Notes under the pieces: generated by a model
The model's database searches: none
What the model was told of the DNA's origin: nothing
The model's input: the letters and a program-made list of their open reading frames with translations, nothing else
Translations under genes and position numbers: made by a program
IMG/VR virus record: IMGVR_UViG_3300019850_000189
Coordinates: 32,001 to 96,000 of that record
Reading direction: 5' to 3' (one strand)
Length of the DNA: 64,000 nucleotides
Source: a virus
Part shown: positions 46,792 through 63,572 of the stretch, in pieces
Numbering within the stretch: the first letter of the stretch is position 1
Layout of the letters: every line of letters starts with the position of its first letter

Positions 46792-46862
46792 GCCACCGTA
46801 GAATAATGGTAGTTCACTGGACCTTCAATCCAGAGATTCCGGATCATTACCGGCCGGTGGCA
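46792..46862 (+). tRNA. tRNA-Glu(TTC), atypical (C33, T-loop ATCATTA)
   Basis: gccaccg/cggtggc; ctgga-ccTTCaa-tccag. Confidence 0.8.
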
Positions 46863-46868
46863 ATTTTC

Positions 46869-46898
46869 TTTACAAAAATGCTTTTTTCGAGGTATAAT
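46869..46898 (+). promoter_or_regulatory. Sigma70-like promoter
   Basis: TTTACA-18 nt-TATAAT; ATG 7 nt downstream of the -10. Confidence 0.65.
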
Positions 46899-46904
46899 AT
46901 AAAT

Positions 46905-47717
46905 ATGAAAAAGTTATTAGGATTTCACATAAGCGGAGCTTCAAAGAATTTGATAGCGAATAGGGATTTCCTAAAGAAAACTGGATTGAGGAATTTTCAG
47001 GTTTTTGTTTCTTCTCCAGCTTCAGGCGCAATGCCAAAACTGTCACCAGAAATGATAGAACTCATGAAGAATTATCATGTGATAGTTCATAGTCCTTATT
47101 GGGTAACATTATCCAGGAAAAAGAGTCTTGGATTTAATCTCGAGTGGGTAATTAGTTTGTTATATCAGGTAGCTGATAATGGATTAAGTATAGATTATGT
47201 AACTCATTTAGGATATCCAGATAAGAGAGCAGGAGAGTATGTCTCTTATGAGGAATCTATCGAAAATACAGTGGATTATTTAAGAAAATTACTTGTTAAA
47301 TGGCCAAAGCATCTTAAGAATACCAGAATTCTGCCGGAAACCGATTCTGGTTCAAAAAATGGCAATGGATTTTCAGGCCTGAAGGGAATAAAGAAAATTG
47401 TCCAAAGAATAAATGATTCTAGAGTTGGAATATGTTATGATACCGAGCATTTATATGCGGCAGGTGAAGATGATCCAACAGAAAAGGATTGGAATTTAAT
47501 CAAGCTGGTTCATCTTAATTCAATTCCGGATAAGGTAGAGAAAGGATCTCATTTGGATAGGCATGGAAAGACATTGATAACTGAATGTAAGGAAGGGCCA
47601 GATTGGGTTTTGGATAAAGCAAGAGAAGCATATAAAAGAAAAATTCCAATGATTCTTGAAAGAAGCGATATGGATGTAGTTTTGAAGGATATAAAATTTA
47701 TATTGGAGCATATATAA
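46905..47717 (+). CDS. nfo: Endonuclease IV (AP endonuclease family 2)
   Basis: Zn-ligand motifs HSPY, THLG, PET, DTEH, VHLN, DRH, ILE. Start moved to 46905 because the longer ORF overlaps a tRNA. Confidence 0.85.
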   Translation: MKKLLGFHISGASKNLIANRDFLKKTGLRNFQVFVSSPASGAMPKLSPEMIELMKNYHVIVHSPYWVTLSRKKSLGFNLEWVISLLYQVADNGLSIDYVTHLGYPDKRAGEYVSYEESIENTVDYLRKLLVKWPKHLKNTRILPETDSGSKNGNGFSGLKGIKKIVQRINDSRVGICYDTEHLYAAGEDDPTEKDWNLIKLVHLNSIPDKVEKGSHLDRHGKTLITECKEGPDWVLDKAREAYKRKIPMILERSDMDVVLKDIKFILEHI

Positions 47718-47721
47718 TATT

Positions 47722-47961
47722 ATGAAAGCCAAACTCGAATTTGATTTACCAGAAGAAAAAGATGATTTTAAGATGGCCACCAAGGGACCAGATTATTACT
47801 TCACTTTATGGGCCCTTGATCAAGAAATAAGGAATATTCTGAAGTATAATAAATTTCCGTCGGATAAGGTTAAGACACCAGGTGATATGGCAGAGCATAT
47901 AAGAGATGTGCTATATCAGATAATGGAAGATAGAAATTTAATCTTTAATGAAATAAGCTAA
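47722..47961 (+). CDS. Conserved phage hypothetical protein
   Basis: MKAKLEFDLPEE...A...LW.LDQ.IR..LKY pattern. Confidence 0.7.
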   Translation: MKAKLEFDLPEEKDDFKMATKGPDYYFTLWALDQEIRNILKYNKFPSDKVKTPGDMAEHIRDVLYQIMEDRNLIFNEIS

Positions 47962-47964
47962 TGC

Positions 47965-48037
47965 TGCGGATTAGACTGGAGTGGCTCCAGCGCGGTCTCA
48001 TAAGCCGACTACCCCTGTTCGACTCAGGGATCCGCGA
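47965..48037 (+). tRNA. tRNA-Met(CAT), initiator-like
   Basis: tgcggat/atccgcg; loop ctCATaa. Confidence 0.8.
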
Positions 48038-48122
48038 AATACAATGAAAAAATCTAGCCATTGGATTATTGGCGTAGATTGAGCGATCAATTGATATAGC
48101 CTTCGAAGAAAGGGTAATTTTC

Positions 48123-48428
48123 ATGTTAAAAAAAATAATAATTGTTTTGCTGTGTCTGATTGTATTGAGTGCCGTCTGTTCCTTGGGAAACAGTGCCTAT
48201 GATGCTATAAAGAAAGCGCGCTACGCTAGGGCTGAAAAAATTTACTTTAATTTTATAATAGAGATATCCAGGAGTTCCATACGCTATTACAATATATTTT
48301 ATAATCCTTACTCAAATCGGTATAATATTAAAATAATAGACAGTAATTACGTGCTGCATGAATATAATAAGGTTAGATTGAATTATCTGCCTTCGATTTT
48401 AGAAGACATCAGCAATAAGCCTCAGTAG
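48123..48428 (+). CDS. Membrane-anchored hypothetical protein
   Basis: N-terminal hydrophobic helix. Confidence 0.55.
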   Translation: MLKKIIIVLLCLIVLSAVCSLGNSAYDAIKKARYARAEKIYFNFIIEISRSSIRYYNIFYNPYSNRYNIKIIDSNYVLHEYNKVRLNYLPSILEDISNKPQ

Positions 48429-48490
48429 CCAAGTGGTTTGGCACTCGGCTCATATCCGGGAATACGGGGGTTCAAATCCCTCCTGAGGCA
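48419..48490 (+). tRNA. tRNA-Met(CAT) (elongator or Ile2)
   Basis: gcctcag/ctgaggc; ctcgg-ctCATat-ccggg. Confidence 0.88.
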
Positions 48491-48534
48491 AATGAACGGA
48501 TTATTCCCGTATAAGAAGGTAAGATAATTATGTT

Positions 48535-48792
48535 ATGTTGTCTGAAAATGCAATATATGTTATCCAAAATCAGAAAAAGATCAGAGAAGGATATTTACGC
48601 TATAAATATATCATACTTAAATACTGGGATGGATTACACTGGATTGTAAGATTTCTAAAGAATGGCAATACTAATTGGATTGCGCTAACAGAAACCAGGC
48701 TTGTGAATATGATTGGTGACGGGACTATTAGAATTCCTGACGCGCATGAAAGATTAGAGGCAATGATAATGGAGAATAAATTGGGGTATTAA
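48535..48792 (+). CDS. Hypothetical protein
   Basis: ORF between tRNAs. Confidence 0.5.
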   Translation: MLSENAIYVIQNQKKIREGYLRYKYIILKYWDGLHWIVRFLKNGNTNWIALTETRLVNMIGDGTIRIPDAHERLEAMIMENKLGY

Positions 48793-48858
48793 TGATGTCG
48801 CAAAAGAAAATGGGGAATAATGAAATATTTTATCAAAAATATAGGGGGATAAAATGAT

Positions 48859-49125
48859 ATGGAAGAGAAACAGAAGACAGGACCTGTAGAAGACGTATTA
48901 AATAACTTAAATGATACGGTAAAGCAATTAGACGTCCTTGTTAATAAATTGCGAGGGCAACTAAAACCCGTATTGGAATCAGAAGGGGAAGAAGATAAAG
49001 AAGAGTTAAAACAACCTTCGGTACCTGTGACTTGTCCCCTTGAACGAGCACTTATGAATACACAGGAGAGTGTAAATAATATAAAATTTAATATCGATGA
49101 AATATTGCGCAGATTAAGAGTTTGA
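48859..49125 (+). CDS. Hypothetical coiled-coil protein
   Basis: AGGGGG SD. Confidence 0.65.
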   Translation: MEEKQKTGPVEDVLNNLNDTVKQLDVLVNKLRGQLKPVLESEGEEDKEELKQPSVPVTCPLERALMNTQESVNNIKFNIDEILRRLRV

Positions 49126-49169
49126 AAGATTAGAGACAATGATAATGGAAAATAAATTGAGATATTAAT

Positions 49170-49240
49170 GCTTCCATAGTACAAAGGCAGTGCAGTAGGT
49201 TGCCAATCTACGAATGCCGGTTCGATTCCGGCTGGAAGCT
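49170..49240 (+). tRNA. tRNA-Gly(GCC)
   Basis: gcttcca/tggaagc; ttGCCaa. Confidence 0.92.
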
Positions 49241-49254
49241 CACGGGGCTATACT

Positions 49255-49575
49255 ATGAAAGCGATATTATATAAAATCAAAGTCTATGAAAGCTTTCTGT
49301 CTTTTAATCATAGTATGGGCCAGGAAATTTGGGAAATTTACATTCCAAGAGAGCACATGTGCATTAATGAGAAAGCTGGAGTTTTCGTAAGTGAAGAACC
49401 AAGAGACAATAAGTATAAAACCGAGATAGAAATATCGCACAAGAGTATTGATATACTTGAAGAATTTTTGCGCGCACAAAAAGATATGCTATCGGAAGTT
49501 GAACATATATTTGATAGTCTTAGAGATGTGGGCCTGGCAGCAAAGCCTAAACCTTCTGGACTTGTCAAGCGATGA
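49255..49575 (+). CDS. Hypothetical protein
   Basis: ORF between tRNAs; GGGG SD. Confidence 0.6.
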   Translation: MKAILYKIKVYESFLSFNHSMGQEIWEIYIPREHMCINEKAGVFVSEEPRDNKYKTEIEISHKSIDILEEFLRAQKDMLSEVEHIFDSLRDVGLAAKPKPSGLVKR

Positions 49576-49579
49576 AAAT

Positions 49580-49650
49580 GGAGCATTTGTGTAGTGGTAG
49601 CACGCAGGCCTGTCTAACCTGAGGCAGGGGATCGTTCCCCCTATGCTCCG
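49580..49650 (+). tRNA. tRNA-Asp(GTC), atypical T-loop (ATCGTTC)
   Basis: ggagcat/atgctcc; ctGTCta; C31:A39 mismatch. Confidence 0.75.
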
Positions 49651-49672
49651 CATGAATAAAGAGAGGGATAAT

Positions 49673-50350
49673 ATGGAATTAGGCGGCGACGTATCAGAGA
49701 TTTTGAATGTAAGACGCTATCGTAAATATGGCTATCAACTTGTTTACTTTATGACAACTGGTCATGGCTTTAGTAAGGAGCCATTTAAAATGTGCACAGC
49801 GCTTACGTGGCCTGAAGGATTATATATAGGTGATAAAAAAACGGCTTATTTTCTTTGTGTAAAAAAAGGAATAAAACCCGAAAAGATTCCCAAAAAGCCG
49901 TTGCCCAAGTCAGATAAAGCAAAAAGGCTTTTAGAAAATATTGATGGAGATATTACGCCGTGTTCAATCGGTTTTTGTGATAAAGATCAAAAGTGGTATG
50001 GATGGTCTCACAGAGCCATATATGGCTTCGGTATTGGTAGCAGAGTTAAAAAGGGTGATTGCGGTTATATACCATTTAGTCCCGAAGATATGCTGGAGGA
50101 TATGATTAGATTTGATAGTGATGACAATCACGTTATACTGGGACATTCTCTTCGTGCTGAAGATCCAAATCATGAAATAGAAGGGTTTGGTATACTTGTC
50201 AAAGAGGAAATTAAGTCTAAAAGCGGCAGATCTATATTAAGTACTGATTGGGAACCATATCCCGTTCCTTGGGGTAAGGGGGAATGGAAAGCTAAAACTC
50301 TTGAAGATGCCAAGCAGATGGCCATAAATTTTGCTCAAGGTATTGCATGA
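49673..50350 (+). CDS. Conserved phage hypothetical protein
   Basis: GAGGG SD before ATG 49673; CSIGF...QKWYGWSHRAIYGFGIG motif. Confidence 0.75.
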   Translation: MELGGDVSEILNVRRYRKYGYQLVYFMTTGHGFSKEPFKMCTALTWPEGLYIGDKKTAYFLCVKKGIKPEKIPKKPLPKSDKAKRLLENIDGDITPCSIGFCDKDQKWYGWSHRAIYGFGIGSRVKKGDCGYIPFSPEDMLEDMIRFDSDDNHVILGHSLRAEDPNHEIEGFGILVKEEIKSKSGRSILSTDWEPYPVPWGKGEWKAKTLEDAKQMAINFAQGIA

Positions 50351-50553
50351 GAAGAAAGAAGAAATTAGAATTAGCCAAAAGACTTTTATGTAATAAATGC
50401 TGCGGCACATGCTATAATCGTTTAGGTAATGGTTATTGCCGTTTATTATTGGATAAAGGTGCTAATGTTTCTCGCGTGAGCGATAATCAATATTGCAAAA
50501 ACTGGAAGCCGGATGTTGAAGGCCGTATTAAATTCAGCTTAACTTGGGGATAG
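50347..50553 (+). CDS. Small Cys-rich hypothetical protein (AKRLL...CxxC family)
   Basis: ATGA overlap; paralogous motif at 61860 and 61381. Confidence 0.55.
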   Translation: MRRKKKLELAKRLLCNKCCGTCYNRLGNGYCRLLLDKGANVSRVSDNQYCKNWKPDVEGRIKFSLTWG

Positions 50554-50566
50554 TGGAGGTTTAACT

Positions 50567-50860
50567 TTGGGAGTATATGACTGCTATGGTAATTGTCAAC
50601 TTAAAATTGGTCCATGTGAATTAGATGTTTATGATATAGGAGATAAAGTTCCAATCACAGATGGAATATATTTGGATTATGGTGGAGCAGTTGTTATTAA
50701 AGATGGAATATTTGTCGCAGAGTTCAAAGAGTTAACCGATAAATATGGCGGTTCTATAGATATAGAACAAGTGGCCAATGAAAGGAATCCATTATATGAA
50801 TTGACACAACAAGTTACTAAAAACGCCAAGAAACAGACGGGCCCTACAGATAAATTATAG
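50567..50860 (+). CDS. Hypothetical protein
   Basis: GGAGG SD; TTG start. Confidence 0.65.
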   Translation: MGVYDCYGNCQLKIGPCELDVYDIGDKVPITDGIYLDYGGAVVIKDGIFVAEFKELTDKYGGSIDIEQVANERNPLYELTQQVTKNAKKQTGPTDKL

Positions 50861-50898
50861 ATAGTAGGATTGTAGTTGATGCTGGCGAATCCGGATGA

Positions 50899-50970
50899 TC
50901 CTCTCTGATGAAATGGGTATCATAGTTGACCGTTAATCAACCTTTTATGGTTCGAATCCATAGGGAGGAG
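50899..50970 (+). tRNA. tRNA-Asn(GTT), C33
   Basis: tcctctc/gggagga; gttga-ccGTTaa-tcaac. Confidence 0.85.
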
Positions 50971-51192
50971 AATGAGAAGAAACACAAAAAAATGTCCTAA
51001 ATGCGGTCGCCTTGTGGGCTTGAGAAATTATAAGAGAAAAAGAAAAGCAAGGTCGGGCAGTAAAACAAATAGAAGTATATAGAGTCCTTAGGGATCAGGG
51101 AATGATTGTTCGCATGAGAGGAGTGTTGATAGTATTTGAGAAAATATCAAAATTTGTGCCAAAAAATAGGTTAATGTAGCATATATACAAAT

Positions 51193-51427
51193 ATGGGCAG
51201 GTTCCGTTATAATGCACTAGCAGAGGAATAAGCGCGGCGGTTCGGAAAGACGAACTTAGATTATCAGGTGACTGCCGGCAATAGTTCGGCGCGCCATCTA
51301 ATGCGAGGTTTAATTTAAAACCTCATCACGGCGATTTAATTGATTTAGGCCTGTGGCTGCGAATGCCAATAATCGAAACCAATAGAGATCGCAAAGCGAA
51401 TAATCCGTTGGAAGTCCGCCTGCCCAT
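51193..51427 (+). ncRNA. Candidate structured ncRNA of unknown family (~235 nt)
   Basis: Perfect 9-bp terminal helix atgggcagg/cctgcccat; several internal hairpins, including a GAAA loop; GC-rich; CATATATA motif immediately upstream. Confidence 0.55.
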
Positions 51428-51446
51428 TATTATATTAGGATATGAT

Positions 51447-51623
51447 ATGAATCTTCAAGAAGCGAAAGCACTCGTCGGAAAAACAGTTGAATTTTCCGGG
51501 GCTTTCAGACACATTTACAAGGCCAAAATATTTAAAGTGCGAGAGTTTAGTGACATTATCGTCGCCGAACTGGATGATGGATCGACCGTAATTAATATAG
51601 AATTATTAAGACTGTTAGATTAA
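51447..51623 (+). CDS. Small hypothetical protein
   Basis: AGGA SD; start placed after the ncRNA. Confidence 0.5.
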   Translation: MNLQEAKALVGKTVEFSGAFRHIYKAKIFKVREFSDIIVAELDDGSTVINIELLRLLD

Positions 51624-51627
51624 TAGT

Positions 51628-51699
51628 GCCCCTCAAGCATACTCGGTGATGTGCCGGTTTTGTACGCCGGAGAAGGGAGTTCGATTCTCCCGGGGGGCT
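51628..51699 (+). tRNA. tRNA-Thr(TGT)
   Basis: gcccctc/ggggggc; ttTGTac. Confidence 0.88.
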
Positions 51700-51718
51700 G
51701 ATTGAATATTGATTTCAT

Positions 51719-51791
51719 GCCCTCGTAGCTTAATAGGTAAAGCAATTTCTCGGTAAGGAAGAGAGTCCGGATTCAATTTCCGGCGAGGGCT
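51719..51791 (+). tRNA. tRNA-Thr(GGT), C33
   Basis: gccctcg/cgagggc; loop tcGGTaa. Confidence 0.85.
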
Positions 51792-51813
51792 CACAGATGT
51801 CTATACATATTAC

Positions 51814-51885
51814 GCCCACATAGCTTTAATGGAAAGCGGGAATTTCGTAAGTTCCAAGTTGCCGGTTCAAATCCGACTGTGGGCT
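51814..51885 (+). tRNA. tRNA-Thr(CGT)
   Basis: gcccaca/tgtgggc; ttCGTaa. Confidence 0.9.
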
Positions 51886-51932
51886 TAATTTTATGCCCAT
51901 AGCATATATAACAAATAAAGGGAGGTGCAAAA

Positions 51933-52109
51933 ATGAGCGATATTAATGTTGAAAAGGAAGACAACATACGTAAGCTTACAGAGCTTAGGTCAACCTTACA
52001 AGTGCTAGGATCAGTTAACCCTAACACGGATGAGGAAGTATGTAAAAGATTGTCAGCTATTAAAAGAAGTATACTTGACAAGATTGATAAACTTGTTGAA
52101 GAGATATAA
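51933..52109 (+). CDS. Small hypothetical protein (58 aa, missed by ORF track)
   Basis: GGGAGG SD; MSDINVEKEDNIRKLTELRS... Confidence 0.6.
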   Translation: MSDINVEKEDNIRKLTELRSTLQVLGSVNPNTDEEVCKRLSAIKRSILDKIDKLVEEI

Positions 52110-52114
52110 AAGTC

Positions 52115-52143
52115 TTTACAAATTGGCAATTATGTGTTATACT
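52115..52143 (+). promoter_or_regulatory. Sigma70-like promoter
   Basis: TTTACA-17 nt-TATACT. Confidence 0.7.
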
Positions 52144-52155
52144 AAAGAAGTGAAT

Positions 52156-52593
52156 ATGAAAGAATACCATAGATATCATCATTTAGAACTAGCATTAGAA
52201 AGATTTGACATATCAAAAAAAATAATAAAAAAAAGCTTTACAAAAGAACAATTCTATTGTATAATTATAAATATGAAGGAAAAAGGCAAAATGGAAGCAA
52301 TAGATGACTTTTTGTGGTTCTCTGAACTGCAACTAAGTACGGGCATTTGCTTGGTTTTACAAAGTGACCGAAACCTGCCATCCGAGGGCTATACTATCCC
52401 CAAGCGAATATCGGATGAAAAAACCCGGTTACCAGTGAGCTTTCGCCTCCTTCATCGACTTGAGGCTGATGACCGAAGTACATTTCCCCAATTGAATGAA
52501 AATGCCAATGGTATTTCATCTCAATTCGCTTTAAAGGGATTAGTGGAAAACCCGGTTGATCTTGTAGGCTCAGTCTCATTCAGTCGCAATTAA
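52156..52593 (+). CDS. Hypothetical protein; 3' two-thirds may be read-through of a structured element
   Basis: Starts after a promoter; base composition becomes more GC-rich at ~52320. Confidence 0.35.
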   Translation: MKEYHRYHHLELALERFDISKKIIKKSFTKEQFYCIIINMKEKGKMEAIDDFLWFSELQLSTGICLVLQSDRNLPSEGYTIPKRISDEKTRLPVSFRLLHRLEADDRSTFPQLNENANGISSQFALKGLVENPVDLVGSVSFSRN

Positions 52594-52644
52594 GGTGACA
52601 ATTTGCCACTTTAAAATAAAATATTTCCTTGACAGGGGGATCTC

Positions 52645-53106
52645 GTGAAAAAGATCACATTATTTCTAGTAGCATTGTTGTTTATTTTGGCAGTTGGAGT
52701 TGTGGCATTTGCAGACATGAAGCCTGCTGACATCGTTGGTAATTGGCTGATTATGCAGGAGTCAAGTGCGGATCAGGATGGCCTTACGCTCTACGAGAAA
52801 GGCTCTGATAGTTATGTCATCTTTAAGTTCAAAGATGATATAATTTGTGCTCCTGCTTTCAATAAAAATGGTGTCAATCATGTTGCCACTTATGATTCTG
52901 GTGAGTATGTAACTGTTAGTAAAGTTAGCATATTTACTGATTCATATGGTAAAAAATGGTATCACTTCTATGACAATTGGTATAACATAGATGTTATGTT
53001 AAAGTTTCATAACAAAGATATCGTTTATGGTTATGCGATCAATGATGACTGGACATTGAAAATAGTGCTCAAGAGATCAGGCACATTCGACTTGAAAAGT
53101 GAATAA
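52645..53106 (+). CDS. Secreted hypothetical protein
   Basis: AGGGGG SD; signal peptide ending AFA. Confidence 0.7.
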   Translation: MKKITLFLVALLFILAVGVVAFADMKPADIVGNWLIMQESSADQDGLTLYEKGSDSYVIFKFKDDIICAPAFNKNGVNHVATYDSGEYVTVSKVSIFTDSYGKKWYHFYDNWYNIDVMLKFHNKDIVYGYAINDDWTLKIVLKRSGTFDLKSE

Positions 53107-53125
53107 TTAAAATAGCAATGAGTTG

Positions 53126-53155
53126 AAAGCCTCGGATATTCGAGGCTTTTTTTTT
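53126..53155 (+). terminator. Intrinsic terminator
   Basis: aaagcctcg / cgaggcttt plus T-run. Confidence 0.85.
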
Positions 53156-53692
53156 GCCAAAATAATTATGTTATGGAGGATAAAATGCAATTAAAGAAAT
53201 ATGAGCGTCAGACAAGATCTTGGTGAAGAAAGTTTTGATGGCAAGACTGGGAAATATTTATTTGACTTTGTCTATGAATATACTAGATAATGTAAAGATA
53301 ATCCTGTTATGGGACTATACGAACAATCTAGAAATACAAAGCAGTATAAACTATTGATTGATGCTGGTTTTAAGGAAGTTACGCCAGTAGTTACTCGTAA
53401 GCGTGGTTCTTTTACTGGGGGAGCTAAATAAAATTTTTCTGGATGCATATATACAGGTATGTTATGAGTGAGTGAGTGTGGTTAATGTATTTGGGAAAAT
53501 ATATTTGATTAGCAAAAATAAACTTTCTTGGAATTATTGCCAAGATAATTTCACCAAAATAAAGAGTGAGAAATTATTATGAATAGATTATCTTCAAAGC
53601 CGCAACAGTTTAGTATTAATTGGTCACATTCCGCGATAGCCGGAGTACATCCAATTATGCGATTGTAAGGACGAATTACTCTTTTTCTCGGT

Positions 53693-53722
53693 AAGCCTTC
53701 CTTACATGGAAGGCTTTTTTTT
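53693..53722 (+). terminator. Intrinsic terminator
   Basis: aagccttcc / ggaaggctt plus T-run. Confidence 0.85.
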
Positions 53723-53729
53723 GACTATA

Positions 53730-53802
53730 GCAGCCATAGTGTTTAATGGTAGCACACGATCCTTCCAAGTTCGATGTGGGGGTTCAAATCCCCCTGGCTG
53801 CT
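53730..53802 (+). tRNA. tRNA-Gly(TCC)
   Basis: gcagcca/tggctgc; ctTCCaa. Confidence 0.9.
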
Positions 53803-53807
53803 CATGA

Positions 53808-53882
53808 GCGTCCGTAGCTCTAATTGCGCAGAGTGCCGATCTCCAAAATCGGATGTTGCAGGTTCGAATCCTGCCGGACGTG
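53808..53882 (+). tRNA. tRNA-Trp(CCA)
   Basis: gcgtccg/cggacgt; ccgat-ctCCAaa-atcgg. Confidence 0.9.
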
Positions 53883-53885
53883 ATA

Positions 53886-56414: not shown

Positions 56415-56436
56415 ATGTGTACTCAAGGAGAACATC

Positions 56437-56661
56437 ATGGCCCAAAAACTGAAATGGTTTCATTATATCGTTGATGGCATGGATGCCAGAAAGGCGGTCA
56501 TGATTAAAAAAGCTTTGCTTGGCGCCGTTCCTCAGATTATAAATGTGTATGTTAGTTTACGCGAATCAAAAGTTTCAGTGTATTCCATTAAACCATTTGA
56601 GAAGCAGGTTAAAATGGCAGCAGAAGTGGCGAATGCCAGCTTTAGAACAAAACTCAAATGA
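56437..56661 (+). CDS. Small HMA-fold-like protein lacking the metal-binding cysteines
   Basis: AAGGAG SD; YIVDGMDARKA..IKKAL...VYVSL pattern. Confidence 0.55.
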   Translation: MAQKLKWFHYIVDGMDARKAVMIKKALLGAVPQIINVYVSLRESKVSVYSIKPFEKQVKMAAEVANASFRTKLK

Positions 56662-56662
56662 A

Positions 56663-56735
56663 TGGCCCGTAGTTCAACAGGAAGAGCGCCAGACTTTGAA
56701 TCTGGAGGCTAGTGGTCCAAATCCACTCGGGCCAG
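56663..56735 (+). tRNA. tRNA-Gln(TTG), C55
   Basis: tggcccg/cgggcca; ctTTGaa; T-loop TCCAAAT. Confidence 0.9.
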
Positions 56736-56740
56736 AACAT

Positions 56741-56812
56741 GGTGGTATTGGTGTAGAGGTCGCACGCAGGTCTGTGGAACCTGAGGGCTCGGCTCAATTC
56801 CGGGATACCACC
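56741..56812 (+). tRNA. tRNA-His(GTG) with encoded G-1; T-loop CTCAATT
   Basis: g-gtggtat/ataccac-c; ctGTGga. Confidence 0.88.
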
Positions 56813-56973
56813 CACTTATTATACTAAAGGAAAATATAATGAACCAAAAAAATCTGCGCTGAGTGTCGGATTATTTGAGGGCAAAGGAACAATTACAAAA
56901 CGAACTAGTAGAAATAATTAGGGGTGCACCCAACGGTTGTAGGGGAAATCAAATTTGGAGAGGAGATAATTAG

Positions 56974-57183
56974 ATGAAAAAATATAGAGTTGTGGAATAT
57001 GAGTATTGTAAACATAAAATCTTTGAAGTGCAGAAGAAATCTATGTTTGGATTTTGGTATAATCCAGACAATGTAGATGGGAATCTTACTAGATATTATG
57101 ATACAATTGAAGAAGCAAAAGAAATTATAAGAAGAAAAATAGCACTAACAACTAAAAGAGTAGTATATGAATCTCCACTTTGA
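56974..57183 (+). CDS. Hypothetical protein
   Basis: GAGGAG SD. Confidence 0.65.
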   Translation: MKKYRVVEYEYCKHKIFEVQKKSMFGFWYNPDNVDGNLTRYYDTIEEAKEIIRRKIALTTKRVVYESPL

Positions 57184-57645
57184 GGCATAAATAGATAGAA
57201 ACAGAACAAGTTATTTTGGAGATAGCAATGACATTAAGAGAACAGTTTGAAAAAGAGTATCATAAACAACCAGTAGAACCTTATCCAGAAAGTGAAGATT
57301 CAGAGCAATGGTTAAAGATTGTTGCATGGGAAGAAAAATATTTAACATGGCTTAAAAATAAACTTCTTCAAAGTATAGATTGGAAATAAAGATGAGTTAG
57401 GGAATGGGAATATGAATAATGTAGATTGTTATTTTGATAAAAATGGTAGAGAGGTAATGAAAAATGGAAGGTAGACATAAAGGGAGTGACAATTCTCATA
57501 GTATAGGGCATAATACTGATACAGAGGAAATAGATAAAATTATAGAAGAAGGTAAATTTGAGGAGACATTAAAAGAAATTATCGTTAAAATGGCAAGTAT
57601 AGATTTTAAGGAAGAGCTAAATAAAATAAAGGGGCCCAATAAAAA

Positions 57646-57864
57646 ATGGCAGATTTAATAAAGATTAAAAACAGGTTTTTAAACCTTGATAAAGTGAGAG
57701 AGATTCATTTTTTAGATAAAAGAATAATTTTGAGTTATGATAATATTGATCGGGAATGGGTTGTAGTTCCTGATAATGAAATTGGAGGTTATCACAAAAT
57801 CACTAAACAGGATTATAAGATGATATCGCAGGAATTACAAAAAATCTCTCACGTAATTATTTAG
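57646..57864 (+). CDS. Hypothetical protein
   Basis: Coupled with the upstream small ORF 57464..57658. Confidence 0.55.
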   Translation: MADLIKIKNRFLNLDKVREIHFLDKRIILSYDNIDREWVVVPDNEIGGYHKITKQDYKMISQELQKISHVII

Positions 57865-57879
57865 TAGAAGAAGAATGTT

Positions 57880-58077
57880 ATGACAGATGAGGAAATAAAA
57901 ACAATTAAGACAATTAATCAAATGACTCAGAGGGAAATGGCCTCCTTATGGAGATTTGCACCATCAGGACATCCATATTTTGACAAAACTAAGCCATATT
58001 GGAAGGTATTCAAAAATAGGTTTTTTGATGAACTTGGAGGTTTTACTCCTGAAATATCAAAATCTATTGGGTGGTAA
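57880..58077 (+). CDS. Conserved phage hypothetical protein
   Basis: WRFAPSGHPYFD...LGGFTPEISKSIGW motif. Confidence 0.7.
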   Translation: MTDEEIKTIKTINQMTQREMASLWRFAPSGHPYFDKTKPYWKVFKNRFFDELGGFTPEISKSIGW

Positions 58078-58144
58078 AATATTAACATAAATTATATCCG
58101 TTGAGGAAGAGAGAACAAGAACGAAAATATATTTTAATAGTTAT

Positions 58145-58219
58145 TGGCCTGTGGTGCAAATTGGTAGCACGACTGACTCTGGATCAGTAGATTTGAGGGT
58201 TCGAATCCTTCCAGGCCAG
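58145..58219 (+). tRNA. tRNA-Gln(CTG)
   Basis: tggcctg/caggcca; ctCTGga. Confidence 0.92.
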
Positions 58220-58292
58220 AATGAGCTTTAATTGTAAATATTGGTGGAAAATTAAAATACCCAGTAATTTTTAGAATAACAGGGAGATTTTA

Positions 58293-58526
58293 ATGCAAAA
58301 AAATAAAGAGGCAAAAAGCTTGAATAATATTAGTTGCCGTTATTTTGATAAAAATGGTAGAGAGGTTAAAGAAGGTGATACAATCCAGTTTACTCTATAT
58401 GAGGGAATACCTAACAAGAAGGAAGTGGTAAGGAAAGATAAAAAAATGAAAAAGTTTGGAATCGTGGGATTGTATCCGCCAATGATGAAATATTTGGAGT
58501 TTGTCATTGTTGATAATGGTAAGTAA
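58293..58526 (+). CDS. YopX-like small protein
   Basis: DKNGREVKEGD motif; GGGAG SD. Confidence 0.55.
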   Translation: MQKNKEAKSLNNISCRYFDKNGREVKEGDTIQFTLYEGIPNKKEVVRKDKKMKKFGIVGLYPPMMKYLEFVIVDNGK

Positions 58527-58770
58527 CGAACGAGTATGAGGAGATTTTATATAATGTATGTATTCGGATTATTTGAGGCGTTTTTTGTAGGGATGGCAAT
58601 AGGAATGATAATTGATTATGTGAGTAGAGAAAGAAAAGTAGAATAAATTATTTCATTAAAATATAAAATAAAGGTGGGTTAAAAAAGCTCGAAGAGGAGG
58701 AAACTAAAATGAATCAAAAACAACTGTAACAGAAATGATGACAGGAAAATGACAGTGAGCCGTAATATAT

Positions 58771-58858
58771 GGAGGCGTGTGATAATGGTAGTCGGGCCGC
58801 CTTGAAAGCGGTTGATCGGTGCTGAGCCGGTTTGGGGGTTCAAGTCCCTCCGCCTCCG
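58771..58858 (+). tRNA. tRNA-Ser(TGA)
   Basis: ggaggcg/cgcctcc; ctTGAaa; long variable arm. Confidence 0.92.
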
Positions 58859-58915
58859 AAAAAAATTATTAATAAAAATCATCCATATTTAGTGGAAACA
58901 TTTTAGAGAGTTTAC

Positions 58916-59006
58916 GGAGGCGTACTCAAGTTGGTGAAGAGGCTGGTTTGCTAAACCAGAAGATCGGTTAATAGCCGGTGCGAGAGTTCGAGTCTCTCCG
59001 CCTCCG
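58916..59006 (+). tRNA. tRNA-Ser(GCT)
   Basis: ggaggcg/cgcctcc; ttGCTaa; long variable arm. Confidence 0.92.
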
Positions 59007-59096
59007 CATAAATATAGTTGATGATTTTTTAAAAAATCTTGGATATTATAACATAGCCGGTGTAGACGAAGTGAATTTATATTTTTGAAATTCCTT

Positions 59097-59179
59097 GGAG
59101 GCGTGTGATAATGGTATTCAGCCAGTTTCGAAAACTGGTGGCCGCTCGCGACTTGCAGGTTCGAATCCTGCCGCCTCCG
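59097..59179 (+). tRNA. tRNA-Ser(CGA)
   Basis: ggaggcg/cgcctcc; ttCGAaa. Confidence 0.92.
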
Positions 59180-59190
59180 AATATATACAT

Positions 59191-59276
59191 GGAGCTGTGT
59201 GATAATTGGTAGTCAGCTTGACTGGAATTCAAGTGCCCGCGTAAGTGGGTTGCAGGTTCGATTCCTGCCGGCTCCG
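59191..59276 (+). tRNA. tRNA-Ser(GGA)
   Basis: ggagctg/cggctcc; ctGGAat. Confidence 0.92.
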
Positions 59277-59376
59277 AGCATATATACTAAGTGAAAGTCA
59301 TTGAACAAAACGCTTCATGAAGCATATTTATATTTAGATTGTATATATATAATAATAAAATACCTAGGAGAAGAAA

Positions 59377-59844
59377 ATGAAAAGAATATTTTTAATATTG
59401 CCAATTTTATTAATGATAGCAGGATTTGCATCAGCAGCAGATGTTCATAGTTATACTGCTATAAAAGTTGGCTATGGAAATGAAACTGGAGGAGCAGGAA
59501 TAGGAATAGAAAATAAATATCACTTTTTTGGTTTTACGGGTGGTATTGGTTATTTTAACGATAAAATATGTTGGAATTTTGGGTTTAAGGGTTATCTTGA
59601 TTTAGGCGAAGTAGCCACAGTATATGGTGGATTAAACTTTGGAATTTTAGGTTATGAGTGGTCTTCATTGGATAATGTATATAAGTATATTTATGGTCCA
59701 TATTTTATGATTGGGGCAGCTTTTGTTGGAAAAAATGGTTTTTATGCAGATATTGGCGGCGGCTATGGCGGATCAAAGACAGAATATTTTGGCAAACTAG
59801 AATTTCCTACAGTGCAACTTTCAGTAGGATATGCATTTAATTAA
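59377..59844 (+). CDS. Outer-membrane beta-barrel protein
   Basis: Signal peptide ending ASA; alternating aromatic/Gly strands; C-terminal LSVGYAF signal. Confidence 0.75.
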   Translation: MKRIFLILPILLMIAGFASAADVHSYTAIKVGYGNETGGAGIGIENKYHFFGFTGGIGYFNDKICWNFGFKGYLDLGEVATVYGGLNFGILGYEWSSLDNVYKYIYGPYFMIGAAFVGKNGFYADIGGGYGGSKTEYFGKLEFPTVQLSVGYAFN

Positions 59845-59890
59845 AATATAATGGGGAGATTATAATCTCCCCTGCTCAAAAGAGTAAAAT

Positions 59891-60256
59891 ATGAAAAAAC
59901 TTTTTTTATTAACAATAATTATAGGAGTACTAATAATTCTTAGCAATTGCTCAGTAACTAATGATGTACATACGCCTACTCTTGTTACGCCTACTACTAG
60001 TAGCGCTAGAGTAATGGTTGTAAATGAGTATGATGGAATTGAAGATTATACTGCTATATACAAAAATGATTCGTATTATGTTCCTTCTGGTTGGGATTCA
60101 TTTGTTTATATTTATATCGAATGGAGTGGCAGTGATAGTAATCATGTAACAATAGATATTTGGGATGGTACAAGGTTTGTTTATGAACAAAACTTTGATT
60201 TAAACGATGGTGATGAAGCTATGATATGGATAGTAGATGGTAGTTATCATCCATAA
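59891..60256 (+). CDS. Putative lipoprotein
   Basis: MKKLFLLTIIIGVLIILSNC lipobox. Confidence 0.65.
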   Translation: MKKLFLLTIIIGVLIILSNCSVTNDVHTPTLVTPTTSSARVMVVNEYDGIEDYTAIYKNDSYYVPSGWDSFVYIYIEWSGSDSNHVTIDIWDGTRFVYEQNFDLNDGDEAMIWIVDGSYHP

Positions 60257-60541
60257 TCAAAAGAAACTATTAATGAAGATCTTATAAAAAGCGGCAACTG
60301 AGATTGTTAAATCTCTTTATAGAGGTCAAATAAAAGAAAAAGGATTTGTGAAAATTAAGGAGCTTAGATGCATATTGTAATAAATGTTTTAATGATTTTC
60401 GGATTGCTTGGTGTATTATGCCTTGAGTCAATTTATGTAGATGTCATGTGGGACAAAATTGACAGGTGGTCAGAAGACCGTAAAAGAGTGGGCAGGAACT
60501 TGATTGCCAGGAAGTTCAAACGGCATTAGATTCTGTGTTTA

Positions 60542-60613
60542 GCGCGCGTAGTTCAATGGTAGAACAGCGTCCTTATAAGGCGTAATTTCCCCGTCCAAAT
60601 CGGGGCGTGCGCA
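60542..60613 (+). tRNA. tRNA-Ile(TAT), C55
   Basis: gcgcgcg/cgtgcgc; gcgtc-ctTATaa-ggcgt; T-loop TCCAAAT. Confidence 0.85.
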
Positions 60614-60626
60614 AGATGAGTGATAT

Positions 60627-60863
60627 AGTTTGACGGTTCCGGTTCTACGCTGTATATGATAACATATATAGAGGAAACACCGAACATCTCTGCTCTAATG
60701 CAGGAGGCGAAAGCTGTTTGGACTGCAGAGGATGCGACCACAAATAACTCTAGGTGGTGAGCAGGCCAATGATGAGATGGTAGTGGGCAGCTGAAAAGCC
60801 AGTTGAAAAAACTGAGATAGATGTAGAACAAAAACAGAATTCGGGTTATAGGAACCGTCAACT
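60627..60863 (+). ncRNA. rnpB: Compact RNase P RNA
   Basis: P1 ttgacggttcc/ggaaccgtcaa; P2 gttctac/gtagaac; P3 hairpin; CR-I-like GAGGAAACACCGAAC; CR-IV-like GAGCAGGCCAA; CR-V-like ACAGAATTCGGGTTA. Confidence 0.8.
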
Positions 60864-60879
60864 TAATATAGCATAAGGA

Positions 60880-61122
60880 GTGAAAATGTCTTTAGAAGAT
60901 GAAATTGTCGAGCATCTTAAACAGGACTTCACGGGTCATGAATTTAGTATTACAACCCAAGGCGATGTGAGAAATATACTTATGGATGGTGTGTCTTGTT
61001 TGACCTATGATGATATACAGATTGACTCCCTTAAAAAATCTTATTCTGCAGCAGCTGAAATGGCATTTGATGAGTTTTATGGCCTGATAGAGCAATCAGT
61101 TAAAATGGTTCTGAATAAATGA
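60880..61122 (+). CDS. Hypothetical acidic protein
   Basis: AAGGAG SD. Confidence 0.65.
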   Translation: MKMSLEDEIVEHLKQDFTGHEFSITTQGDVRNILMDGVSCLTYDDIQIDSLKKSYSAAAEMAFDEFYGLIEQSVKMVLNK

Positions 61123-61307
61123 TTTTAAATATATCAGGATATTTTCTTGGATATATTTAAATTTATAATAGTAGTTTTTCTTATTTATTTGTTTATAAAA
61201 TATATGTAGAAGGAAATAATGATTTTTAATTCCGAAACAGCGGCGTGGATTCTTGTCGGGTTTGGTGTAGCTACATTTGTGTTTGCGGCTTTATGGCAGA
61301 GGATTAA

Positions 61308-61378
61308 GCACCTGTAGTTCAATGGTAGAACCGGCGAACGATAATCGTCAAACGAAAGTTCAACTCTTTCCGGGTGCA
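61308..61378 (+). tRNA. tRNA-Ile(GAT), A32/C33
   Basis: gcacctg/cgggtgc; ggcga-acGATaa-tcgtc. Confidence 0.85.
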
Positions 61379-61588
61379 CAATGAAACCTAAAACTCAGGC
61401 CGCGAAGATGCTTTTGCGTTTTGGCAAGAAGTGTTGGAATTGCGGTAATCTTGATCTTGGACGGAAAAATTCATTTTGTTGCTGCCGTATAATCCAAGCT
61501 TCTATACTCGGTCCTATGAAATAGAAAAAGGGACATGGGAAGGCCCTAATGAATTTGATAAATTTATAGAAACAATTAGGAGTAAAAA

Positions 61589-61783
61589 ATGAGCTACAAT
61601 TCATCAGCTGGTGGAGATTTTGGCATAGGAATGGTTTTATTTATAGTTTTTCTAATATTGAAACTGACACACACTATAGATTGGCGCTGGATTTGGGTAT
61701 GTTCTCCATTGTGGATTTTTGCTGGTTTTGTTATTTTCGTGCTTCTCGCTTTGGGCGTAATAGCCGCAATATCGAGAATGTAA
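61589..61783 (+). CDS. Small membrane protein
   Basis: AGGAG SD; GIG...LFIVFLILKL...IDW.W.WV.SPLWI motif. Confidence 0.75.
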   Translation: MSYNSSAGGDFGIGMVLFIVFLILKLTHTIDWRWIWVCSPLWIFAGFVIFVLLALGVIAAISRM

Positions 61784-61785
61784 TA

Positions 61786-61859
61786 GGGTCCTTGACTCAA
61801 TCAGGTAGAGTACTGGCCTCTTAAGCCAGGATGTGAAGGTTCGATTCCTTCAGGGCCCA
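61786..61859 (+). tRNA. tRNA-Lys(CTT)
   Basis: gggtcct/agggccc; ctCTTaa. Confidence 0.92.
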
Positions 61860-62120
61860 ATGATTGGTTTTAAGATAGAAATAGAGAGAAAGAAATTAGC
61901 GAAGCGACTTCTGCAAGATAGGACTTGCGAAAATTGTGGGATACCACTTAGCTTGATGTATGAAATGATTAACAAAGATGAAATAGAAAGAGCATTAAGA
62001 GAGCGTGGTTGCCAGTTGCGAGTGAAGTATATAAAAGACAATAAGCTTATTATGAAATCTCCATTTGAAAGAACTTGTAGCAGTTTTACGGAAAAAAATG
62101 ACAACAATCGAAGTAGCTAA
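61860..62120 (+). CDS. Hypothetical protein (AKRLL...CxxC family)
   Basis: KLAKRLLQDRTCENC; start placed after the tRNA. Confidence 0.5.
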   Translation: MIGFKIEIERKKLAKRLLQDRTCENCGIPLSLMYEMINKDEIERALRERGCQLRVKYIKDNKLIMKSPFERTCSSFTEKNDNNRSS

Positions 62121-62173
62121 GAATTTATTAAAAATAAAACTTGTGATAGGAAGTTAATTGTTGAGTATAAGTA

Positions 62174-62246
62174 GGCTGGGAAGCTCAATTGGTAGAGCGG
62201 TGGGTTGAAGACCCGCGCGTAGGCAGTTCGATACTGTCCCCAGCCA
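62174..62246 (+). tRNA. tRNA-Phe(GAA)
   Basis: ggctggg/cccagcc; ttGAAga. Confidence 0.92.
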
Positions 62247-62249
62247 ATA

Positions 62250-62324
62250 GCGGGGTTGGCTCAGTTGGTTCAGAGCGGTAGTCCTACAAACTACAGGCCG
62301 AAAGTTCGAATCTTTCACCCCGCA
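62250..62324 (+). tRNA. tRNA-Val(TAC), C33
   Basis: gcggggt/accccgc; gtagt-ccTACaa-actac. Confidence 0.88.
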
Positions 62325-62357
62325 CATAGGTAAGATTCATATGAATAGGAAAGAACA

Positions 62358-62765
62358 ATGATTAAGCAAGTTATTGCAGTAAGAAAAGATCTTGACATGA
62401 ATAATGGAAGAATGGCGGCGCAAGTGGCCCATGCCGCTATGAAAGTTTTCCTTGATAGGGCTGCCGCCATCATACCACTGAATCTTGAGAGCGACGAATG
62501 GTGGATTTCTATAAAAAATGTAACTGGGCCAATGGCAAAATGGTGTAAAGATAATTTCACTAAAGTAGTGGTTGGTATCAATGCGGAAGATGATATATAC
62601 AAACTCAAAGAAAAAGCCGATAATGCTGATATACCAAATGCCATAATGGTTGATAATGGATTCCCAGAGTGCTATCATGGTAAGACAGCTACATGCATTG
62701 CCATAGGCCCTGATATATCCGAAAAAATTGATGCGATAACTGGCAATTTAGAGCTTATTCAATAA
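62358..62765 (+). CDS. pth2: Peptidyl-tRNA hydrolase, Pth2 type
   Basis: KQVIAVRKDL.M..G.MAAQVAHA, W...F.KVVV, VDNG, TCIAIGP...IDAITG.L.L. Confidence 0.88.
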   Translation: MIKQVIAVRKDLDMNNGRMAAQVAHAAMKVFLDRAAAIIPLNLESDEWWISIKNVTGPMAKWCKDNFTKVVVGINAEDDIYKLKEKADNADIPNAIMVDNGFPECYHGKTATCIAIGPDISEKIDAITGNLELIQ

Positions 62766-62876
62766 AGGTAACATAAAGCGAAATAAAAGGGGTATGTATA
62801 ATTATGAATTTATCTCTGTGTCATAAACGTTATCTCTTTGGAGGACAACCATAAGCAGGCCGTGTTATATTTATAT

Positions 62877-62902
62877 ATCCGCCTGAAAAGGCGGATTTTT
62901 TT
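62877..62902 (+). terminator. Intrinsic terminator
   Basis: atccgcct-gaaa-aggcggat plus T-run. Confidence 0.85.
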
Positions 62903-62904
62903 GC

Positions 62905-62933
62905 TTTACAGATAGCAATTAGTAGTTTATAAT
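62905..62933 (+). promoter_or_regulatory. Sigma70-like promoter
   Basis: TTTACA-17 nt-TATAAT; ATG 7 nt downstream of the -10. Confidence 0.8.
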
Positions 62934-62939
62934 TACAAT

Positions 62940-63122
62940 ATGAAAGTTATAATTAGATGCTCAAAATGCGGTAAGGATATTCGCGAAGGAGAATGGCCGG
63001 ATAATCCAAACTATAAGGAGCCGGTTGTCTCTCACGGCTATTGTGACGAATGTTATAAAATAGTCATGAAAGATGCTGAAGCTGATTTTATTGTTATTGA
63101 GAAGAGGGTCAGTAAAGAGTAG
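62940..63122 (+). CDS. Small zinc-finger protein, probably leaderless
   Basis: CSKC...SHGYCDEC; 3' end overlaps tRNA-Tyr. Confidence 0.65.
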   Translation: MKVIIRCSKCGKDIREGEWPDNPNYKEPVVSHGYCDECYKIVMKDAEADFIVIEKRVSKE

Positions 63123-63193
63123 CGGCGAACTCCCCTGTCTGTAAAACAGGAGCCTTAAGGCAAACATCGTAGGTCCGAGTCCTACCTGGCCCA
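63106..63193 (+). tRNA. tRNA-Tyr(GTA), C55
   Basis: gggtcag/ctggccc; ctGTAaa; long variable arm; T-loop TCCGAGT. Confidence 0.88.
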
Positions 63194-63282
63194 AACACAT
63201 ATGTATGTCCAATGAGAGGTATTTGCATATGTTAGTAGAACATAAAAAGTAGTTTTTATTGGCGACTTGAGCCATATATAAA

Positions 63283-63498
63283 ATGATGGAAAAGCGTGTT
63301 TTTATAGATACTAAAAAGAAGATGATATATATCCAAGTGCCATCTAATGTAAAATTGAAGAGTGATGTATTTTTGAAGATTTATAGTAAAAAAATCAAAC
63401 TTTTCAAGAATAAGGAAAAGTATGATGTATATACCATAAAGTGCTCTAATTTATCAGAGGCATTTAATCTTCAAGAAAGTCTGCTTAATAGTTTATGA
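63283..63498 (+). CDS. Hypothetical protein
   Basis: ORF after a CATATATA motif; stop abuts tRNA-Lys. Confidence 0.5.
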   Translation: MMEKRVFIDTKKKMIYIQVPSNVKLKSDVFLKIYSKKIKLFKNKEKYDVYTIKCSNLSEAFNLQESLLNSL

Positions 63499-63572
63499 GG
63501 GTCAGTGACGCAATATGGTAGCGTAATCGGCTTTTAACCGATAAGTTGGGGGTCCAAATCCCTTCTGGCCCA
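63499..63572 (+). tRNA. tRNA-Lys(TTT), C55
   Basis: gggtcag/ctggccc; ctTTTaa; T-loop TCCAAAT. Confidence 0.9.

Follow-up and report, generated by a model that had tools for sequence, protein, structure and literature searches.

Replaced loop uridines in a third of the transfer RNAs of a large uncultured T4-like phage, and their possible role in resistance to tRNA-cutting nucleases

The uridines at positions 33, 54, and 55 of transfer RNA (tRNA) are among the most conserved bases in biology. We describe here a phage tRNA array in which these uridines are replaced in 13 of 37 tRNAs, termed deviant tRNAs in the following (i.e., tRNAs with replacement of U33 or of U54-U55). The array was analyzed in a 64-kb stretch of DNA, hereafter the window, which represents bases 32001-96000 of a 189,375-bp IMG/VR virus contig (IMGVR_UViG_3300019850_000189); coordinates refer to the window unless stated otherwise. 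This contig (35.6% G+C, ~79% complete) carries T4-type tail genes (sheath, gp15-like) as well as many inteins and methylases, and its source is a large uncultured T4-like phage. We interpret the deviant genes as working tRNAs whose unusual bases are genomic and maintained by selection, and which are probably hardened against loop-directed tRNA-cutting nucleases (tRNases); taken as a whole, we consider this interpretation to be about evenly balanced between right and wrong.

ARAGORN identified 28 tRNA genes within the window and 36 over the contig as a whole, every one on the + strand, and Rfam/Infernal recovered 27 window tRNAs at the gathering threshold, in agreement with ARAGORN. Including a tRNA-Pro(UGG) that was called by neither tool, the array, which extends past the window to window coordinate 73220, totals 37 tRNAs, covering all 20 amino acids plus a CUA suppressor. 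Bases at positions 33, 54, and 55 were parsed from the ARAGORN structures, and Infernal alignments gave the identical register. C33 was found in seven tRNAs (Glu(UUC), Asn, Thr(GGU), Ala, Ile(GAU), Val(UAC), and Pro(UGG)) and C55 in five (Ala, Gln(UUG), Ile(UAU), Tyr, and Lys(UUU)); position 54 was A54 in Glu(UUC) and Asp, C54 in His, and G54 in Pro. An earlier note on this DNA, made from the sequence alone, had named the same tRNAs for each of these three positions; six of its C33 assignments and all five C55 assignments were reproduced by ARAGORN and Infernal, the seventh C33 (Pro) is supported by a cloverleaf fold and by conservation in a relative, and its count of 12 affected tRNAs is corrected here to 13. 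The in-window part of the array and the deviant genes are as follows.

46638..63694, + strand: tRNA array, in-window part (28 ARAGORN tRNAs and the uncalled Pro)
46792..46862, + strand: tRNA-Glu(UUC); C33 at 46823; A54 at 46843 with U58 at 46847; T-loop ATCATTA
49580..49651, + strand: tRNA-Asp(GUC); A54 at 49631 with U58 at 49635; T-loop ATCGTTC; U37
50899..50970, + strand: tRNA-Asn(GUU); C33 at 50931; loop CC-GTT-AA
51719..51792, + strand: tRNA-Thr(GGU); C33 at 51751; A53:U61 pair covaries
55045..55117, + strand: tRNA-Pro(UGG); C33 at 55077; G54 at 55098 and G55 at 55099; A18 at 55062; T-loop GGCAGAG
56303..56378, + strand: tRNA-Ala(UGC); C33 at 56337; C55 at 56359
56663..56735, + strand: tRNA-Gln(UUG); C55 at 56717; 63.4 bits; identical in the relative's contig L232
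56742..56813, + strand: tRNA-His(GUG); C54 at 56793; T-loop CTCAATT
60542..60613, + strand: tRNA-Ile(UAU); C55 at 60595, retained in L232 (71/72 identical)
61308..61379, + strand: tRNA-Ile(GAU); C33 at 61339; loop AC-GAT-AA; identical in L232
62250..62325, + strand: tRNA-Val(UAC); C33 at 62284; 68.3 bits, the top tRNA score of the window
63106..63193, + strand: tRNA-Tyr(GUA); C55 at 63175, retained in L232 (87/88 identical)
63499..63572, + strand: tRNA-Lys(UUU); C55 at 63554

The deviant tRNAs have essentially perfect stems, and their median Infernal score (57.5 bits) is on a par with that of the canonical tRNAs (56.0 bits); tRNA-Tyr scored 27.7 bits, below the Rfam threshold, owing to its long variable arm. 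Other invariant positions are kept, with C56 in 36/36 tRNAs, G53:C61 in 35/36 (the lone exception covarying), and A58 in 34/36, and the two tRNAs with U58 are the two with A54 (Glu and Asp). A54 together with U58 represents a swapped reverse-Hoogsteen 54:58 pair, which is also present in the Lys(UUU) of the close relative described below and in the Ile(UAU) of phage Trina. Paired changes also link position 55 to position 18, and the partners change together in the A54:U58 and G55 cases examined: G55 is accompanied by A18 (AG replacing the usual GG) in Pro and in 6/6 other G55 tRNAs in the comparison pool, and the C55 tRNAs retain G18-G19. As judged from these genes, A18:G55 is perhaps a recurrent alternative elbow, and it may be specific to one class of CAU tRNAs; the six pool genes that combine a TGC T-loop with an AG D-loop are five tRNA-Met(CAU) and one Cys gene, located on unrelated IMG/VR contigs (L098, L104, L107, L139, and L077). 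Among the changes at positions 33 and 55, 12/13 are to C (p=1.7e-5), so that a pyrimidine is retained. The systematic U-to-C replacement proposed in the earlier note thus holds for these 12 changes and does not extend to the A54:U58 swaps in Glu and Asp or to the G54-G55 of Pro with its A18. Loss of U8 was also considered as part of the same pattern and was rejected, as non-U8 tRNAs already account for ~10% of ordinary phage tRNAs and for 2/32 here (two A8 tRNAs).

The tRNA-Pro(UGG) was missed by ARAGORN, even with thresholds lowered to 80%, and by Rfam at E<=1, because of its T-loop. It nevertheless folds as a cloverleaf with 21 stem pairs, all of them Watson-Crick, and carries C1:G72 and A73, which we take to be the bacterial proline signature. 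Its 8-nt D-loop ends in A21 and is read as A18-G19-N20, and the copy in the close relative (contig L234), which differs at positions 16, 20, and 57 only, varies exactly at N20. Judged on this sequence evidence, the uncalled gene is a true tRNA gene; it is the sole Pro tRNA of the genome and completes the set for 20 amino acids. Standard annotation would list this phage as one without tRNA-Pro, and, since ARAGORN and Rfam both miss it, the tRNA sets of uncultured phages are likely under-counted.

The frequency of these replacements was compared with a baseline of 314 tRNAs that were pooled from three sets. Four cultured tRNA-rich phages (GAP32, Alone3, Trina, and PR1) contributed 108 tRNAs, with one C33, no C55, and one A54:U58; metagenomic contigs that share the PTH2 peptidyl-tRNA hydrolase gene of this phage contributed 44 tRNAs, with six C33 and no C55. 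The third set, an IMG/VR sample of 162 tRNAs, included eight C33, three C55, four G55 (all Met-CAU), and one non-U54; as it was drawn via a canonical T-arm, with the sampling tRNA removed, it represents a sample of tRNAs and not a count of the U55 form. Against this pooled baseline, T-loop deviants at positions 54 and 55 are enriched ~8-fold in the array (9/37 vs 9/314, p=1.5e-5), with C55 present in 5/37 tRNAs as compared to 3/314 (p=4e-4), and C33 is enriched ~4-fold (7/37 vs 15/314, p=0.004).

Conservation was assessed in a close relative, represented by five contigs that were found by exact-sequence cluster look-ups in the Logan assemblies of the independent runs ERR15087767 and ERR15087787; these contigs show 93-97% DNA identity (~95%) and span window positions 37847-70692 with gaps. 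Of 16 deviant sites, 15 are retained in this relative, and the identical bases in its independent assemblies rule out the sequencing artefacts that the earlier note had allowed for. The deviant tRNAs differ from their counterparts at 1.47% of sites, the canonical tRNAs at 2.10%, and the flanks at 4-5%. By these rates the deviant genes are under purifying selection, evolving no faster than the canonical ones, which, together with perfect stems and equal scores, agrees with the earlier observation of intact stems and no general decay. With regard to individual genes, tRNA-Glu(UUC) is identical in contig L233, where the adjoining Glu(CUC) has four changes, and tRNA-Thr(GGU) is identical in L230; the A54:U58 of tRNA-Asp is retained in L230 despite three other changes in the gene, and the C54 of tRNA-His is retained in L232 though T-loop positions 57 and 60 differ. 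The tRNA-Val(UAC) with its C33 is identical in L232, and C33 is also found in L006, whose copy has D-loop changes. The sole differing deviant site is in tRNA-Ala, which in L232 retains C33 and has U55 instead of C55. In tRNA-Asp we also observed U37, a position at which a purine is the rule, along with C31 mismatched to A39; in the relative, the pair is U31:A39 and U37 is again present.

Three tRNA genes have been swapped between these ~95%-identical phages, which indicates that the array turns over by replacement and not by point mutation alone. The Asn gene of the relative (L230:1525-1611) is unrelated to that of the window and 87 nt long, containing an additional arm or insert, and its anticodon loop is again CC-GTT-AA. 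The Lys(UUU) gene of the relative (L232:8699-8771) is a mosaic that has the same anticodon arm and a T-loop, ATCGTAA, in which A54:U58 replaces C55. The third swapped gene, Arg-GCG (L232:9153-9226 vs window position 63621), is unrelated or mosaic and has the same anticodon. That Asn and Lys(UUU) are deviant again although their genes have been replaced, as read from these two pairs of genes, is not readily accounted for by inheritance only. In a distant relative (L007, PTH2 75% identical), Ile(GAU) has C33 though all stems differ, and Ile(GAU) has C33 in phage GAP32 as well. Searches for further relatives gave little: GenBank phages yielded no near or distant relative, with scattered single-tRNA matches only, the IMG/VR contigs reached via the tail sheath and PTH2 proteins gave no orthologues, being too distant or too short, the PTH2 gene of several contigs had no tRNA array nearby, and an exact-pattern scan for the Lys(UUU) T-arm produced no matches.

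The same pattern was found in unrelated phages. An IMG/VR scan for one C55 T-arm returned 56 loci, of which ~20 are within real tRNAs. The most extreme case seen in this analysis is phage G002 (201 kb, ~50% G+C; the record of locus L080, with its 14.2-kb array in L203), in which 28 of 40 tRNAs are deviant, including 11 with C33, 14 with C55, and nine with non-U54 (five A54, three C54, and one G54). In phage G003 (255 kb, 42.5% G+C), the array loci hold 45 tRNAs, with four C33, four C55, and one A54:U58, and a whole-record run added a 46th tRNA, a Trp with A54. C55 is present in the Lys(UUU) of all three phages, as compared to 0/10 Lys(UUU) genes of the unbiased pool; Glu(UUC) is likewise deviant in 3/3, and the A54:U58 of Asp occurs in two. 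In arrays that were picked via one C55 tRNA, the other tRNAs show T-loop changes in 12/141 cases as compared to 9/314 in the pooled baseline, indicating that the trait clusters by phage.

Codon counts from 167 long open reading frames (ORFs) were used to estimate the demand for each tRNA. The top seven tRNAs by demand (Lys-UUU, Glu-UUC, Asp, Asn, Ile-UAU, Tyr, and Ile-GAU) are all deviant; median demand per thousand codons is 47.8 for deviant tRNAs as compared to 18.1 for the others (Mann-Whitney p=7e-5), and the deviant tRNAs together read ~54% of phage codons. The queuosine class (Tyr, His, Asn, and Asp) and the 2-thio-U34 class (Glu, Gln, and Lys) are deviant in 7/7 cases, vs 5/29 for the other tRNAs (p=9.5e-5). 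A general rule that deviant tRNAs always serve the commonest codons was considered and rejected, as it is true here and fails in G002 and G003.

Protein genes are interleaved with the tRNAs, including a DUF559 endonuclease and an Nfo-like endonuclease. Two further genes located between tRNA genes encode a Tad6-family Thoeris inhibitor (window 49643-50350, E=2e-42) and a PTH2 peptidyl-tRNA hydrolase of the archaeal/eukaryotic type (window 62358-62765, E=2e-27), and their presence suggests that the array doubles as a counter-defence and translation-support island. A CCA-adding-enzyme domain is encoded elsewhere on the contig, and genomic CCA follows 1/36 tRNAs only; a protein search with a 71-amino-acid ORF found no homologues. 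Directly after tRNA-Ile(UAU), a 234-nt match to bacterial class A RNase P RNA (window 60631-60864, + strand, 62.7 bits, E=3e-17) covers the full model span, yet scores under the gathering score of 100; its block is 95% conserved in L232, and the RNA is absent from G001, G002, G003, and GAP32. By sequence, it is a possible miniature phage RNase P RNA. A role for such a small RNase P RNA as the common cause of the odd T-loops was rejected, as G002 and G003 share the T-loop changes without this RNA. A GOLLD RNA (162.6 bits; window 55559-56036, + strand) encloses a tRNA-like gene with the anticodon UAG, in which the anticodon stem is weak and the long variable arm typical of Leu is missing, and which, with seven differences from the L232 copy, is the most diverged tRNA of the array. 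The CUA (amber suppressor) tRNA is located past the window end, at contig positions 105149-105220 (window coordinate 73149), and G003 has one too.

Our preferred interpretation of the deviant tRNAs is that they would sustain phage translation while the ordinary tRNA pool is cut. The phage has a near-complete translation kit of its own (37 tRNAs, a CCA-adding enzyme, PTH2, and an RNase P-like RNA), and its most-needed tRNAs have lost one conserved loop uridine, either U33 or U54/U55, with the elbow re-fitted where needed by A54:U58 or A18:G55. The altered tRNAs may then no longer be substrates of host, or possibly phage-made, tRNases that recognize those uridines. Candidate attackers would be T-loop-cutting nucleases of the Schlafen/Cash type and anticodon-loop nucleases that act next to U33. 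Prokaryotic Schlafen (Cash) nucleases are switched on by type III CRISPR signalling, and one of them, CbCash, cleaves tRNAs chiefly within the T-loop, on the 5' side of U55 in a UUC motif, with single U54 or U55 mutations abolishing cutting; the authors leave open whether phage tRNAs are targeted (PMC13462974, 2026). In a comparison made on positions, the CbCash site falls on positions 54 and 55, and position 33 lies next to sites at which anticodon nucleases are known to act. Whether the T-loop changes specifically represent counter-defence against Schlafen/Cash-type nucleases, and C33 likewise against anticodon-loop nucleases, with hardening of the tRNAs that carry the main load, is a narrower proposal that we regard as possible if on the whole doubtful. 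Counted in favor of the overall interpretation are the intactness of the genes and the purifying selection on them, the retention of deviant sites and their reappearance in replaced genes, the elbow co-changes, the predominance of C at positions 33 and 55, the high codon demand, the recurrence in unrelated phages, the CbCash findings, the published precedents for resistant phage tRNAs discussed below, and the Tad6 Thoeris inhibitor interleaved in the array.

A number of observations weigh against this interpretation. T-loops are altered in 9/37 tRNAs only, whereas CbCash cuts 28 E. coli tRNAs, so that any protection would be partial; the published U54/U55 mutants may not include U55C; and, as position 34 is U or G in tRNAs with C33, the 'UC' anticodon-loop motif of CbCash is not removed. 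No tRNA repair genes (Rnl1, Rnl2, and RtcB), which would be an independent sign of nuclease pressure, were found, which for Rnl1 is a weak negative given that its model matched no control genome. The links of deviance to codon demand and to modification class are post hoc, with A/U-rich anticodons as a confounder of both, and G002 and G003 did not replicate the link to codon demand. In the distant relative L007, Lys(UUU) is canonical and Val(UAC) has U33, which, alongside the retention in the close relative, indicates that the trait holds steady between near relatives and changes over greater distances, and the C55/U55 difference in Ala between the close relatives indicates that at least this site can flip quickly. 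Finally, the sequences themselves show the bases, their enrichment and conservation, the co-changes, and the lack of an RNA-type deaminase in the contig, whereas the benefit to the phage, the attacking nuclease, and the resistance itself are inferred.

The replacements may instead reflect relaxed constraint, with changes drifting into phage tRNAs, which need to function for minutes only, as nearly neutral substitutions that have no defensive role; we consider this rather unlikely. At conserved positions, U33C, U55C, and changes of U54 would be the mildest ones possible, given that E. coli can do without the enzymes that modify U54 and U55, and phage tRNAs in general show ~5% C33, 1-2% C55, and ~10% non-U8. 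The Ala difference between near-identical phages also fits drift, as do the differences in deviant identities among this phage (G000), G002, and G003, the failure of the demand link in the latter two, and the normal charging of natural C55 tRNAs in Lactiplantibacillus (PMC10464925). Under drift, however, changes would be expected first in rarely used tRNAs, yet each of the seven most demanded tRNAs is deviant; moreover, the deviant genes evolve no faster than the canonical ones, two independently replaced genes are deviant again, T-to-C changes run against the mutation bias expected at 35.6% G+C, and deviance clusters in few phages, with C55 in 0/108 tRNAs of the four cultured phages as compared to 14/40 in G002. 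An alternative selective explanation, which we hold to be improbable, is independence from, or avoidance of, host tRNA-modifying enzymes, either for fast maturation or as an escape from harmful modification. C55 blocks pseudouridine formation by TruB, and A54 and C54 block 5-methyluridine formation by TrmA. In Asn, the U33-G34-U35 element that the queuosine-inserting Tgt uses is disrupted by C33. The altered positions are all modification sites or recognition elements of these three enzymes, the changes concentrate in the most-used tRNAs, and the phage has maturation factors of its own (the CCA-adding enzyme, the RNase P-like RNA, and PTH2). By contrast, lack of these modifications is normally mildly harmful and not helpful, C33 is present in only 1/4 queuosine-type tRNAs, and U33 itself is, to our knowledge, not modified in bacteria.

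The earlier note had offered C-to-U RNA editing that restores U33 and U55 side by side with nuclease resistance; resistance fits all that was found, namely intact, conserved genes in high demand that are deviant again when replaced, along with a published nuclease family that cuts at U54/U55 (PMC13462974), and editing has gained no support and appears very improbable to us. Editing would account for the predominance of C among the changes at 33 and 55 and would make the Ala C55/U55 difference neutral, and an editing enzyme might be encoded outside this 79%-complete contig or be supplied by the host. Where the note had looked to a cytidine deaminase, possibly fused to a THUMP domain, a PF00383 search of the contig found one protein, which matches TIGR02571 (ComEB/dCMP deaminase) at 128 bits as compared to 28 bits for TadA; this lone CDA-fold protein is thus of the ComEB/dCMP-deaminase type and is located beside nucleotide-metabolism genes. 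There was no THUMP match at E<=1 in the 79%-complete contig, and a six-frame motif scan of the contig found no other HAE...PCxxC zinc-deaminase site. G002, with 14 C55 and 11 C33, has no HAE...PCxxC motif at all, and G003 has one zinc-deaminase motif, of the dCMP-deaminase type. Editing also leaves A54:U58, C54, G54-G55, and the A18 co-change unexplained, and the adjustment of the elbow that is visible in the DNA (A54:U58 and A18:G55) would be needless if editing took place; we know of no C-to-U tRNA editing in bacteria or phages. That the deviant genes are decaying pseudogenes or assembly errors seems scarcely credible, even though Tyr falls below the Rfam threshold and Pro was missed by both tRNA finders: other runs, assembled independently, gave identical bases, and the genes combine perfect stems and high scores with a low rate of substitution. 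Pro is, moreover, the only tRNA for its amino acid, with changes at variable positions only in the copy of the relative, and Pro, Asn, Asp, Tyr, His, Ala, and Val are all without a second copy in the genome.

With regard to known systems, the tRNAs described here share with those of Methanopyrus kandleri a genomic C where a U is structurally required. In M. kandleri, CDAT8, a cytidine-deaminase domain fused to THUMP, acts at C8; the phage contig is without an RNA-type deaminase or THUMP. Eukaryotic cytoplasmic initiator tRNA-Met has C33 in many species, along with A54 and A60, and thus also functions without U33 and U54; the initiator, however, has a special role and its own factors, whereas the phage tRNAs are elongators of many identities. 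The tRNA-Gly of Lactiplantibacillus plantarum has a natural genomic C55 and is charged like its U55 mutant (PMC10464925), a case of one tRNA family in one bacterium, as compared to five C55 identities plus changes at positions 54 and 33 in the phage. Closest in proposed purpose are the tRNA-Lys of phage T5, which escapes the AriB nuclease of PARIS through anticodon-stem changes (PMC11464382), and the anticodon-loop hypothesis for phage tRNAs, which makes no mention of U33 or the T-loop (van den Berg et al. 2023, PMC10264068). Shared with these would be phage copies of host tRNAs with substitutions in a region that tRNases recognize, as well as the purpose, namely that translation survives tRNA depletion; here as there, Lys(UUU) stands out. 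In the published work, the changes affect the anticodon stem-loop and were compared with a known host and nuclease, whereas most of the striking changes described here are at T-loop positions 54 and 55; our full-text literature searches found no paper that describes C55 or position-54 changes in phage tRNAs. Irrespective of their purpose, these genes show that U33, U54, and U55 can be replaced in a third of one tRNA set, and how the elbow is re-fitted can be seen from the co-changes at positions 58 and 18. The U54 and U55 that CbCash requires are the positions replaced in 9/37 phage tRNAs; as the CbCash work used E. coli tRNAs and no Cash-type gene is tied to the host of this phage, the match is one of position only (PMC13462974). 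If the resistance interpretation is true, resistant phage tRNAs would concern the T-loop too and not the anticodon arm alone, these would be the first natural phage tRNAs that escape a T-loop nuclease, the question left by the CbCash study would have an answer, and Schlafen nucleases could be directly tested against resistant phage tRNAs with defined sequences.

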